Origin: Escherichia coli | Lineage (GTDB): Bacteria > Pseudomonadota > Gammaproteobacteria > Enterobacterales > Enterobacteriaceae | Strand: one strand, 5' to 3' | Length of the DNA stretch: 64,000 bases | Assembly (NCBI RefSeq): GCF_046105845.1 | Contig: NZ_CP151004.1 | Shown here: in pieces, positions 10,587-61,123 of the stretch | Layout of the letters: each line of letters starts with the position of its first letter | Position numbering within the stretch: the stretch's first letter is position 1 | Notes under the pieces: generated by a model | What the model was told of the DNA's origin: nothing | Database searches by the model: none | What the model saw: only the letters and a program-made list of their open reading frames with translations | Position numbers and translations under genes: made by a program

Positions 10587-11381
10587 ATGGATCTGTTGTA
10601 CCGGGTAAAAACGCTTTGGGCCGCGCTGCGCGGTAATCATTACACCTGGCCTGCTATCGATATCTCTCTTCCCGGCAATCGCCATTTTCATCTGCTCGGC
10701 AGTATTCATATGGGTAGCCACGATATGGCTCCCCTGCCCACCCGTTTGCTCAAAAAGCTCAAAAACGCCGATGCGCTGATCGTCGAGGCGGATGTTTCCA
10801 CCAGCGATACGCCTTTTGCTAATTTGCCTGCCTGCGAGGCGCTGGAAGAGCGCATTAGCGAGGAGCAACTCCAAAACCTGCAGCACATTAGCCAGGAGAT
10901 GGGCATTTCTACCTCACTCTTTTCTACCCAACCGCTGTGGCAAATCGCGATGGTTCTTCAGGCGACACAGGCGCAAAAACTGGGGCTGCGGGCAGAGTAT
11001 GGTATCGATTACCAGCTATTGCAGGCGGCGAAGCAACAACATAAATCCGTGATTGAACTGGAAGGGGCAGAAAACCAGATTGCCATGTTGCTCCAGCTCC
11101 CTGACAACGGACTGGCGCTGCTGGACGATACGCTGACCCACTGGCACACCAATGCACGGTTGCTGCAACAAATGATGAGCTGGTGGCTGAACACGCCGCC
11201 GCAAAATAATGAAATAACGCTGCCTAATACGTTCAGTCAGTCGCTGTACGATGTGTTGATGCATCAGCGAAATCTCGCCTGGCGGGATAAATTACGCGCC
11301 ATGCCGCCGGGGCGATATGTGGTCGCGGTCGGTGCACTACACCTGTATGGAGAAGGGAATTTACCGCAAATGTTGCGCTAA
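10587..11381 (+). CDS. ybaP: TraB-family protein YbaP
   Basis: 264-aa ORF matching recalled YbaP. Confidence 0.9.
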   Translation: MDLLYRVKTLWAALRGNHYTWPAIDISLPGNRHFHLLGSIHMGSHDMAPLPTRLLKKLKNADALIVEADVSTSDTPFANLPACEALEERISEEQLQNLQHISQEMGISTSLFSTQPLWQIAMVLQATQAQKLGLRAEYGIDYQLLQAAKQQHKSVIELEGAENQIAMLLQLPDNGLALLDDTLTHWHTNARLLQQMMSWWLNTPPQNNEITLPNTFSQSLYDVLMHQRNLAWRDKLRAMPPGRYVVAVGALHLYGEGNLPQMLR

Positions 11382-11463
11382 AAAAATGGCCAATATCGCT
11401 ATTGGCCCGTCAAAGAGGAATTTCATTTTTTTATTATTATGCCGTCACTTTAAGCGACGGTGT
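11381..11463 (-). ncRNA. chiX: ChiX (MicM/SroB) Hfq-dependent sRNA
   Basis: Minus strand reads ACACCGTCGCTTAAAGTGACGGCATAATAATAAAAAAATGAAATTCCTCTTTGACGGGCCAATAGCGATATTGGCCATTTTTTT, matching recalled ChiX including terminator hairpin and U-tract; in the ybaK-ybaP intergenic region as in K-12. Confidence 0.85.
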
Positions 11464-25970: not shown

Positions 25971-27902
25971 TCAAATGGGGCGGATACTTTCTTCATCCAG
26001 CTCCGCATCGAAGAACCGACGCAGGGTCTGAATATTATTATCCGCAATAATGGACTCGCGCGCCTGCGCAAGTTTTTCTTCGTATATCGCCTGACGCCAT
26101 TCCAGCGGCGTACGCACCGCGGGATTATCATCTTCAACGATAGTCAGTTCAACCGTTGAACCTTTTAACGTGCTCAACGCTTCAGCCAGTTTTTGCTGTG
26201 CACCGCGGTTGTTCAAATGCCGCTGAGAGGAGCGCAAATGCAGACATACTGCGTTGTCGCTCTCCTCTTTCCAGGCATTTAGCGCCACCTGTTCGACCAG
26301 TTTTGGTAGCGAAAGTTGGCTCACCTGTGCCGCCCACGGGTCGCGCTCAATGGCTTCTGCCGCCAGCTTCGCCGCCAGTTCCGGCGTTTTTTCATGTTCC
26401 AGCGCTTTTTTTAGCGCCTTCGGCGTGGCGACCACTTCTTTTTGCTGCATCACTGGAGTGGTGGCCTTCCAGCGATACGCTTCTTTTTTGGCTGGCGCTT
26501 TTTCCAGCGCCGATGGCACCGGGCGCGCCTGAACGCGATCGGTGACCGAAGCCAGTCTTTCCAGCGCAGCGTTATTCACCGGCCGCGCGCGGGTAGCGGC
26601 TGCCGGTTCACTCTTTTTTGCTTTGGTTGCTCCCTGCACGCGCTGCAACTGCTGGCGCGCCGCCAGCACCTGGCTGGTGGTTTCCGGGAGCGGTACAGTC
26701 GGTGCCTGCTGCGGCGCTGATTGCGGTTGCGGCGGCACCTGTGTTGGCGTCATTACTGCCGTTGGCGCGACGGGCGCAAAGGACTGGCGTGGCACTTCTG
26801 GCTCAGGCAGCGGCATACGCGGATGGAACGCCAGCGCGCGAAGCAGCGTCATCTCAACGCCCATACGGCGGTCTGGCGCATACGGTAATTCTTTGCGACC
26901 AATCAACAGCGTCTGATAGTAAAGCTGAATATCCGTCGGCGGTATGGTGCGCGCCAGTTCACGCATCCGCAGCTCGATGGCAGCCATGTCGTTGCCAAGT
27001 GCAGCAGGCGAAAGTTGTACCATCGCAATACGATGCAACAGACCGAGCATTTCCACCAGCAACGCTTCCCACTCGATACCACGGGCAGCGGCTTCATTAA
27101 TCAGCGCCATTACGCGCTCGCCGTTGGCCTCGACCATCGCTTCAACCAGCGACAGCGCCTGATCGTCGTCAAGCGTACCCAGCATCGCACTGACCGCCTG
27201 AGTTGAAACCTGGCCGTCACCGCTGGCAATCGCCTGGTCGGTCAGACTTAAGGCATCTCGCAGGCTGCCTTCAGCGGCGCGTGCCAGCAATTGCAGCGCC
27301 CGCGGCTCGTGAGCGATATGTTCTTCGTTGAGGATGTGCTCAAGCTGATGGCGAATTTGCTCGACATCCAGCGCCTTGAGATGAAATTGCAGACAACGTG
27401 ACAAAATCGTCACCGGCAATTTCTGCGGATCGGTCGTCGCCAGCAGAAACTTAACGTGCTCCGGCGGCTCTTCAAGGGTTTTTAACAGTGCGTTAAAGCT
27501 GTGGCGCGACAGCATATGCACTTCGTCGATCAAATAAACTTTGAAACGACCACGCGCCGGAGCGTACTGGACGTTATCCAGCAGGTCGCGGGTATCTTCA
27601 ACTTTGGTGCGCGAGGCGGCGTCGATTTCAATCAGATCGACAAAGCGCCCCTGCTCGATTTCACGACAGTTATCGCACACGCCGCACGGCGTCGCGGTAA
27701 TGCCGGTTTCGCAGTTTAGCCCCTTCGCCAGCAGTCGGGCGATAGAGGTTTTTCCGACGCCACGGGTACCGGAAAAAAGATAAGCATGATGAATACGCCC
27801 TAACGACAAGCCGTTCGCCAGTGCGGTCAGCACATGTTCCTGGCCGACGACGTCAGCAAAGGTTTGTGGGCGCCATTTTCGGGCTAAGACCTGATAACTC
27901 AT
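25971..27902 (-). CDS. dnaX: DNA polymerase III subunits tau and gamma
   Basis: 643-aa ORF with AAA+ motifs (GTRGVGKT) and internal frameshift site. Confidence 0.97.
   Translation of the reverse strand: MSYQVLARKWRPQTFADVVGQEHVLTALANGLSLGRIHHAYLFSGTRGVGKTSIARLLAKGLNCETGITATPCGVCDNCREIEQGRFVDLIEIDAASRTKVEDTRDLLDNVQYAPARGRFKVYLIDEVHMLSRHSFNALLKTLEEPPEHVKFLLATTDPQKLPVTILSRCLQFHLKALDVEQIRHQLEHILNEEHIAHEPRALQLLARAAEGSLRDALSLTDQAIASGDGQVSTQAVSAMLGTLDDDQALSLVEAMVEANGERVMALINEAAARGIEWEALLVEMLGLLHRIAMVQLSPAALGNDMAAIELRMRELARTIPPTDIQLYYQTLLIGRKELPYAPDRRMGVEMTLLRALAFHPRMPLPEPEVPRQSFAPVAPTAVMTPTQVPPQPQSAPQQAPTVPLPETTSQVLAARQQLQRVQGATKAKKSEPAAATRARPVNNAALERLASVTDRVQARPVPSALEKAPAKKEAYRWKATTPVMQQKEVVATPKALKKALEHEKTPELAAKLAAEAIERDPWAAQVSQLSLPKLVEQVALNAWKEESDNAVCLHLRSSQRHLNNRGAQQKLAEALSTLKGSTVELTIVEDDNPAVRTPLEWRQAIYEEKLAQARESIIADNNIQTLRRFFDAELDEESIRPI
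26613..26619 (-). other. dnaX: dnaX programmed -1 frameshift site (A AAA AAG) producing gamma
   Basis: Minus strand reads GCAGGGAGCAACCAAAGCAAAAAAGAGTGAACCGGCAGCC...: SD-like AGGGAG upstream, heptamer, then a stem-loop; the -1 frame stops at GAG TGA. Confidence 0.85.
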
Positions 27903-42798: not shown

Positions 42799-43152
42799 CT
42801 ATTCGTCGATGATTGACTCGAATCCGCCATAGATCATTCGCTTACCATCAAACGGCATGGACTCGCCGAACTCTTTCATCCGTGGGTCCGACATCATCTT
42901 TTGATTAGCAGCGTCGCGGACCTCTTTTGAAGGGTATTCAATCCAGCTAAAGACAACCTCTTCATTCTCTTCAGCTTTTACCGCCATACGAAAATCGGTC
43001 ACTTTGCCATCCGGTACATCGCTGGCCCAGCATTCGACAATACGAAGCGCGCCAAACTCTTTAAACAATGGCGCAGCCTTAGCAGCCATTTCCCGATAGG
43101 CATCCTTTTTATCGGCAGGAACGGCAACCACAAAACCATCAACATACTTCAT
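42799..43152 (-). CDS. ybaA: DUF1428 protein YbaA
   Basis: 117-aa ORF in the conserved position. Confidence 0.9.
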   Translation of the reverse strand: MKYVDGFVVAVPADKKDAYREMAAKAAPLFKEFGALRIVECWASDVPDGKVTDFRMAVKAEENEEVVFSWIEYPSKEVRDAANQKMMSDPRMKEFGESMPFDGKRMIYGGFESIIDE

Positions 43153-43262
43153 CAGACATACCTCCGAAGCGTACTGCGCAGCCAGACAATTCTTGCGACG
43201 TCAGTTGTGGTTAAAGTTTAGCCATATTGGGATTTTTTGACGAAACGGGGGGAGGCAGAAAT

Positions 43263-43376
43263 GGGTGGGGGCCCTGCCAGCTACATCCCGGCACACGCGT
43301 CATCTGCCTTGGCTGCTTCCTTCCGGACCTGACCTGGTAAACAGAGTAGCGTTGCGGGAGAACCAACAGAGCCCCC
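43263..43376 (-). ncRNA. ffs: 4.5S RNA (signal recognition particle RNA)
   Basis: Minus strand reads GGGGGCTCTGTTGGTTCTCCCGCAACGCTACTCTGTTTACCAGGTCAGGTCCGGAAGGAAGCAGCCAAGGCAGATGACGCGTGTGCCGGGATGTAGCTGGCAGGGCCCCCACCC, matching recalled 114-nt ffs. Confidence 0.95.
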
Positions 43377-43452
43377 ATTGAGAGCGTTGAGAACCAACGC
43401 GCAGGCGCATTATCACTGCAGCCCCGGCTAATTGCAACCCATTGCGTACCGG

Positions 43453-43842
43453 ATGCTGGTTTCTTGCGCAATGCGACTTCACTCGGGCGTTTTTCCAGAT
43501 TATGCTGAAAAATTACCTCAGGAAGAAAAGATGGAAAAAGAAGATTCATTTCCCCAACGCGTCTGGCAAATCGTCGCCGCTATTCCCGAAGGCTATGTCA
43601 CCACTTACGGTGATGTGGCGAAACTGGCAGGATCGCCCCGCGCCGCGCGCCAGGTGGGCGGTGTGTTAAAGCGTCTCCCTGAAGGCAGCACCTTGCCCTG
43701 GCATCGGGTGGTTAATCGCCACGGCACAATTTCGCTAACCGGACCGGATTTACAGCGTCAACGACAGGCATTACTGGCAGAAGGTGTGATGGTATCGGGA
43801 AGCGGGCAAATCGACTTGCAGCGTTATCGCTGGAACTACTAA
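43453..43842 (+). CDS. atl: Alkyltransferase-like DNA base-flipping protein Atl (YbaZ)
   Basis: ORF trimmed to MLVSCAMRLHSGVF... (129 aa). Confidence 0.88.
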   Translation: MLVSCAMRLHSGVFPDYAEKLPQEEKMEKEDSFPQRVWQIVAAIPEGYVTTYGDVAKLAGSPRAARQVGGVLKRLPEGSTLPWHRVVNRHGTISLTGPDLQRQRQALLAEGVMVSGSGQIDLQRYRWNY

Positions 43843-43872: not shown

Positions 43873-44445
43873 TTAATATTGCGTAGGAGCTGGAACTGCC
43901 GAAGACGGATTCACCTGAGTTGGTGAAGTCGAAGGTACGGTAGTCGTTGCGCCACCGCTGGCCTGAACCGGCACGGCGGTTTGCTGCACCGGCACCAATG
44001 TCAGGTCGGCTTTAGTTCCGCCCTTGTTGATAACCGGCTGAACGGTATCGGTAATAAATACCAGTTTGTCATTCACGGTAATCGCCGCACTCAACAGAAT
44101 ACGCGCGTTCGGCTGAACATCTGCCGGGTTAAATGGCAGAACAAAGCTAAATGGTGACTGTTTACCTTCGGTACGCACCGCTTTCTGCGCCAGCACTTTT
44201 GACGGTGCATCGGCTAACGACGCGTCAGAAAGTGTCACGGTCAGCACAGCATCAGGCGGCAGTGCGACTTTCTGACGGATCCAGACGGTACCGGAGACAT
44301 TCGGTTGCTGGATAGCAGGTTGTTGTGTTGCTGAAATAGACGTATTTGCAGCCGGTGCTGGCGTCTGAATATCCGCGCTTTTATCTGCGCAAGCCGCCAA
44401 CGCAATCGCAACCGCTAAACCACTGGCCATGTGCACGAGTTTCAT
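43873..44445 (-). CDS. ybaY: Lipoprotein YbaY
   Basis: 190-aa ORF with lipoprotein signal (LAACADK). Confidence 0.9.
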   Translation of the reverse strand: MKLVHMASGLAVAIALAACADKSADIQTPAPAANTSISATQQPAIQQPNVSGTVWIRQKVALPPDAVLTVTLSDASLADAPSKVLAQKAVRTEGKQSPFSFVLPFNPADVQPNARILLSAAITVNDKLVFITDTVQPVINKGGTKADLTLVPVQQTAVPVQASGGATTTVPSTSPTQVNPSSAVPAPTQY

Positions 44446-60936: not shown

Positions 60937-61018
60937 AGAGCTCTCTCTTAGTTTAATTTCCGCCAGGTAATCAGATGACACGACTGTGCTTCACGCCATC
61001 TATTAACATGTACGTCAG

Positions 61019-61046
61019 TATATGGGGATGTTTCCCCCACATTCAA
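61019..61046 (-). promoter_or_regulatory. Heat-shock (sigma32-type) promoter of lon
   Basis: Minus strand reads TTGAAT (-35), 13-nt spacer, CCCCATATA (-10). Confidence 0.55.
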
Positions 61047-61123
61047 CGCCGAGAATAGAGGAAAAATTAAAGGGGAGATAAAATCCCCCCTTTTTGGTTA
61101 ACTAATTGTATGGGAATGGTTAA

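Follow-up and report, generated by a model that had tools for sequence, protein, structure and literature searches.

The minus strand of positions 43263-43376 in the window (the whole stretch of 64,000 nt analysed here) carries the single chromosomal ffs gene of an Escherichia coli strain, encoding 4.5S RNA, a reading to which a probability of about 0.99 is assigned. The mature 4.5S RNA is the RNA subunit of the bacterial signal recognition particle (SRP), 114 nt in length, and it is recognised here by identity with K-12, by a match to the Rfam family RF00169, by its fold and by covariation. The reverse complement of the interval reads GGGGGCTCTGTTGGTTCTCCCGCAACGCTACTCTGTTTACCAGGTCAGGTCCGGAAGGAAGCAGCCAAGGCAGATGACGCGTGTGCCGGGATGTAGCTGGCAGGGCCCCCACCC (114 nt), and direct string comparison showed identity at 114/114 bases with the reference copy of K-12 MG1655 (ffs, b0455, NC_000913.3 476448-476561, annotated 'signal recognition particle 4.5S RNA'). 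The exact 114-nt match to 4.5S RNA claimed in the original prediction is thereby confirmed, and the strand, both ends and the length named there are all exactly right. Its placement between ybaA and atl was also correct, as the gene is flanked by ybaA (42799-43152, minus strand) and atl/ybaZ (43453-43842, plus strand). Apart from the 114 nt of the RNA, the window shares with K-12 MG1655 the 5' leader, the -35 and -10 hexamers and the flanking genes with their orientation, whereas the two differ at six flanking intergenic positions and in the opposite orientation of the records.

The whole window was scanned with Rfam 15 at gathering thresholds, which gave four matches in total, and the local region 43100-43560 was scanned at permissive thresholds. 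The scan with a bacterial small SRP model, named in the original prediction as the check on it, returned a full-length match to RF00169 (Bacteria_small_SRP) at 43272-43368 on the minus strand, with 68.1 bits against an Rfam gathering score of 40, i.e. 28 bits over it. The match has E = 5.5e-13 in the whole window and 4e-15 in the permissive local scan, is far above chance and covers 97/97 model positions untruncated. The E. coli RNA exceeds the model by 17 nt, so that the match falls within 43263-43376; of these additional nucleotides 8 belong to the 5' end and 9 to the 3' end, giving a longer terminal stem and an unpaired ACCC tail. The features shared with RF00169 (clan CL00003) are the 97-position match, the extended helix and the apical motifs GGUCAGG, GGAA and AGCAGC. 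Weaker overlapping matches to other families of the same clan were obtained too, which the scan set aside for the small-SRP model, and these could be taken to mean that the region encodes another class of SRP RNA (the large bacterial one that has an Alu domain, e.g. that of Bacillus) or, alternatively, an unrelated hairpin RNA. Such an assignment is exceedingly improbable: the small-SRP model is the best-scoring member of the clan and is matched end to end, a single hairpin of 114 nt leaves no space for an Alu domain, and the only match outside the clan in the region is a miRNA model at chance level (17.7 bits versus a gathering score of 90). Beyond this chance-level miRNA match no other RNA family was found over 43100-43560 at permissive thresholds.

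The helix 8 apical domain of the small SRP RNA is common to large bacterial SRP RNA (scRNA/6S type, Bacillus), archaeal 7S RNA and eukaryotic 7SL RNA, and the binding of SRP54/Ffh is the role that large bacterial SRP RNA, 7S and 7SL have in common with it. The large bacterial SRP RNA, 7S and 7SL carry an Alu domain and further helices; unlike these large SRP RNAs, the 114-nt RNA described here consists of one hairpin. Matches to the 24-nt apical motif also turned up in contigs titled Bacillus, Paenibacillus, Erysipelotrichaceae and DPANN archaea.

Within the RNA, the apical conserved domain (RNA nt 39-67, helix 8 or domain IV; 43310-43338, minus strand) was located by its match to the Rfam consensus and comprises an asymmetric loop, a symmetric loop and a tetraloop. 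RNA nt 43-66, GGUCAGGUCCGGAAGGAAGCAGCC, agree with the upper-case Rfam consensus GGUCAGG ... GGAA ... AGCAGC(C). In K-12 the Ffh M domain binds at this apical domain (PMC5454536), which is also stated, with reference to Batey et al. 2000, in 10.1101/379222. The GGAA tetraloop of the GNRA type (RNA nt 53-56; 43321-43324, minus strand) is a predicted hairpin loop and lines up with the GGAA loop in the Rfam consensus, and in K-12 it makes the first contact with the FtsY receptor in the 'early' state (PMC5454536). A distal conserved block in the 3' strand of the hairpin, GUGCCGG (RNA nt 83-89; 43288-43294, minus strand), was distinguished by its conservation in 15 gammaproteobacterial sequences, where G83, G85, C86, C87 and G88 do not vary and U84 and G89 hardly do (n = 15, the block lying outside the pattern used for fetching the sequences). 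This block is probably the exact distal site at which the Ffh-FtsY GTPase dimer docks and is activated, as Ataide et al. 2011 reportedly found. A distal site of the RNA where GTP hydrolysis is activated has been described (PMC5454536).

The fold of the RNA is one long hairpin, with pairs that covary across Gammaproteobacteria. The predicted structure of the 114-nt RNA has a free energy of -57 kcal/mol, the minimum-free-energy and centroid structures being the same, and the fold has z = -3.15 against dinucleotide shuffles. The hairpin is topped by the GGAA tetraloop (nt 53-56) with internal loops on both sides, and the 3' tail ACCC stays unpaired. For covariation, as a test of the fold that does not depend on Rfam, homologues were gathered by the apical motif GGTCAGGNCCGGAAGGNAGCAGCC with one genome per species, which gave at least 120 loci from many phyla, and 114-nt stretches were taken out around the motif. 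The alignment was composed of the window sequence and 14 gammaproteobacterial sequences (n = 15), from genera including Citrobacter, Enterobacter, Providencia, Pseudomonas, Marinobacter, Vibrio and Pseudoalteromonas; the loci L107 and L077 and several large-SRP or distant sequences, incomplete at the locus end or not alignable end to end with the 114-nt form, were left out. Covariation was scored on the E. coli structure, that is on a structure derived from one member of the alignment. Standard pairs occupied 91.9% of cells (n = 15), in comparison to 80.1% in shuffles and 35-51% when the 3' partners were slid by 1-3 columns. Pairs changed on both sides amounted to 20/42, against 11.2 in shuffles and 4-9 in the slid versions, and the observed pairing values were attained in 0/500 shuffles. 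Columns 43-66 are invariant by construction of the fetch pattern and do not count as independent evidence; the covarying pairs are all outside these columns, save 50-59, which falls on the two N positions of the pattern.

The original prediction had treated the gene as non-coding and absent from the list of open reading frames, and indeed no real protein gene lies over ffs. A 112-aa ORF with an ATG start (43211-43549, minus strand) does span the RNA, and if this ORF or one of the shorter ones were real, the region would be protein-coding and the RNA match incidental. This reading is very improbable and can be regarded as effectively refuted. The 112-aa frame, the sole long one here, has no Pfam match and crosses both the ffs promoter and the start of atl on the opposite strand, K-12 and thousands of RefSeq genomes carry an ncRNA annotation on the same stretch, and the substitutions in homologues keep the base pairs and not the reading frame.

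The two neighbours of ffs are true protein genes. Downstream, on the same strand, ybaA (42799-43152, K-12 b0456) is an ORF for a DUF1428 protein of 117 aa (PF07237, E = 2.3e-48). The divergent upstream neighbour, atl/ybaZ (43453-43842, K-12 b0454), encodes an alkyltransferase-like DNA base-flipping protein with the MGMT-type DNA-binding domain PF01035 (E = 3.9e-27), and beyond it lies ybaY (43873-44445, minus strand, PF09619). The start of atl/ybaZ is annotated inconsistently, with 129 aa in K-12 (start at 43453) and 103 aa in the gene table of another strain; the 103-aa form (312 bp) corresponds to the ATG at 43531, with AGGAAG before it, and the start of the long form, on the opposite strand, is located just 16 nt past the -35 box of ffs. 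Both starts are compatible with the Pfam domain, since its first residue is number 33 in the long form. Over 2401 nt the locus shows 98.6% identity with K-12 (33 mismatches, 0 gaps). None of the mismatches falls inside the ffs RNA or its leader, against 33 in the surrounding 2.4 kb. Six are found in the flanking intergenic sequence, upstream at 43420, 43443, 43448 and 43451 and downstream at 43226 and 43249; that at 43420 is situated within the spacer of the ffs promoter.

The remaining three Rfam matches above the gathering score in the whole window are the sRNA sraA at 61008-61103 (plus strand, 106.7 bits), the dnaX programmed-frameshift element at 26574-26638 (minus strand, 96.8 bits) and the sRNA sroB at 11380-11463 (minus strand, 82.1 bits), all of them known E. 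coli features. Their order presumably fits that of the K-12 genes around minute 10 in reverse reading. The window is a segment of the E. coli chromosome of a non-K-12 lineage, and ARAGORN found no tRNA or tmRNA genes in it.

A promoter-like site of ffs was found by a scan for sigma-70-like sites at 43409-43437 (minus strand), with the -35 hexamer TTGCAA (43437-43432), a 17-nt spacer and the -10 hexamer GATAAT (43414-43409). No other sigma-70-like site was found in 43100-43600, where 0.3 would be expected by chance, and a G+C-rich GCGCC (43408-43404) comes just after the -10 hexamer. Conservation of the two hexamers extends to Citrobacter, Enterobacter, Providencia and Photorhabdus. In K-12, 5' ends seen by RNA-seq lie mainly at -26 from the mature end, a 22-nt leader having been reported earlier, and pre-4.5S RNA is cleaved by E. 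coli RNase P (PMC5499578, which also cites the earlier report). Position -26 corresponds to 43402 of the window, 7 nt beyond the last base of the -10 hexamer, and so fits the predicted promoter and points to a leader of about 26 nt that RNase P would take off. The 5' leader of the primary transcript (43377-43402, minus strand) would have about 22-26 nt and be removed by RNase P as in K-12 (PMC5499578), and its sequence equals that of K-12.

A hairpin is predicted in the leader at 43384-43400, GCGUUG-GUUCU-CAACGC, with 6 bp formed by GCGUUG and CAACGC. Hairpins of other sequence can be drawn at the same place in Providencia (UGCUU/AAGCA, locus L089) and Photorhabdus (GCUUU/AAAGC, locus L077), these pairings having been made by eye, and 5/5 Enterobacterales compared have the same CAAT directly ahead of the RNase P site. 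Such comparison of sequences suggests that the structure of the leader may be under selection. There is also an exact 10-nt direct repeat, GUUGGUUCUC, on the minus strand, with one copy in the leader (43389-43398, nt -22 to -13) and the other in the mature RNA (43358-43367, nt 10-19), each followed by AACGCU either directly or 4 nt later. By a rough estimate, chance would give about 0.07 such 10-mer repeats in 391 nt. Conservation of the leader copy is incomplete in Citrobacter and Enterobacter, and the copy in the mature RNA overlaps the nt 11-18 loop of a non-native cotranscriptional hairpin called H1 (10.1101/379222). It is a rather doubtful idea, put forward tentatively, that the leader might serve as a built-in aid to folding or processing (e.g. 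by rivalling the non-native H1 or by presenting the RNase P site), with some read-through into ybaA also possible.

As regards the 3' side, the terminator scan found no canonical intrinsic terminator between ffs and the start codon of ybaA, 110 nt downstream (43153-43262, minus strand). The sole terminator match on the minus strand (43385-43371) spans the junction of the leader and the 5' end of the RNA and was rejected as not credible. The sequence right after the RNA (AUUUC/AUUUA) is kept in Citrobacter and Enterobacter. Transcription may end at the 4.5S hairpin itself or read through into ybaA.

Copy number and distribution agree with an ordinary chromosomal gene. The 114-nt query was present in 5424/5426 complete E. 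coli genomes, in exactly one place per genome, and with at least 99% identity in 5420 of the complete genomes. In thousands of E. coli genomes RefSeq labels the features under the listed matches 'ffs: signal recognition particle sRNA small type'. A 391-nt locus query gave 95-99% identity in most genomes and at least 99% in 427, and thus, with the RNA itself at 99% or more, the flanks vary while the RNA is constant.

The ffs sequence does occur in a few records titled 'plasmid' and in one titled 'phage', and ffs is reportedly a phage attachment site in Enterococcus (PMC12540744). Taken together these points could speak for a non-functional or mobile extra copy in the window (a pseudogene, a phage or plasmid fragment, or the remnant of an att site), which is nevertheless very hard to maintain. 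The copy in the window is full length, equal to that of K-12 and placed in the standard ybaY-atl-ffs-ybaA-pdeB context with promoter hexamers and leader intact, it is matched by exactly one copy per E. coli genome, and there is no repeat or integrase-type feature at the RNA's 3' end. The records themselves do not require a mobile gene. The single 'phage' match, OR845144.1 (L122, 8661-8841), is an unannotated 9-kb contig flagged UNVERIFIED_ORG; the 'plasmid' NZ_CP137697.1 (L123, 1999-2179) of 129 kb holds the chromosomal block ybaY-atl-ffs-ybaA-pdeB-ylaC-maa-hha-tomB; and several further 'plasmid' matches are chromosome-sized records of 1.2-4.9 Mb. These records look like mislabelled or contaminating chromosomal DNA. 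Phage- or plasmid-borne ffs was rejected on the grounds of the UNVERIFIED_ORG flag, the chromosome-sized records and the normal neighbourhood in the inspected plasmid, and no sign of a mobile ffs copy was found among the E. coli genomes or the 'phage' and 'plasmid' matches. The gene in the window is accordingly read as the one chromosomal ffs.

A separate case of doubtful labelling was met among the homologues. The SRP RNA fragment GUGAAUCUGGUCAGG...GCAAGUGCCGGGGGUCAGGCUCGCCACC of locus L107, from contig CAMDRJ010000240.1 titled 'MAG: Klebsiella pneumoniae', is betaproteobacterial-like, unlike enterobacterial ones, and resembles those of Azoarcus (L006) and Methyloversatilis (L085); the contig is probably a binning error.

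The steps of biogenesis and action set out below rely on literature for the identical K-12 molecule. Transcription of ffs would be driven by the TTGCAA/GATAAT promoter about 26 nt upstream, after which RNase P would cut off the 5' leader and the 3' end would be trimmed to ...CACCC. The 3' trimming is reportedly performed by exoribonucleases (Li, Pandit and Deutscher 1998). The nascent RNA would at first form a non-native 5' hairpin, later rearranged to the extended helix, and such a cotranscriptional 5' hairpin followed by the extended helix has been described (bioRxiv 10.1101/379222). With the Ffh M domain bound on the apical loops the RNA would become SRP, capable of recognising signal sequences on ribosomes engaged in translation. 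Assembly of the Ffh-FtsY GTPase dimer would then be accelerated by the GGAA tetraloop, and the dimer would shift to the hairpin's distal part, in which an RNA base may enter the composite active site and lead to GTP hydrolysis; the nascent chain would finally be handed to SecYEG. In the published account, 4.5S RNA and Ffh constitute SRP, the NG-domain dimer relocates distally, an RNA base is inserted and hydrolysis is coupled to the handover to SecYEG (PMC5454536). The K-12 4.5S RNA binds Ffh, takes part in co-translational targeting and is encoded by an essential gene (PMC5499578, PMC5454536).

The ffs gene described here is already known: it is a textbook gene without any departure, and there is no new biology in it. 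The gene, the structure, the processing and the mechanism of 4.5S RNA are among the best studied of bacterial RNAs. The value of the finding is one of annotation only, as an ncRNA gene is invisible to a track based on open reading frames and is covered here by a spurious 112-aa ORF. Marking ffs averts the miscall of this ORF and accounts for the 300-nt gap between ybaA and atl.
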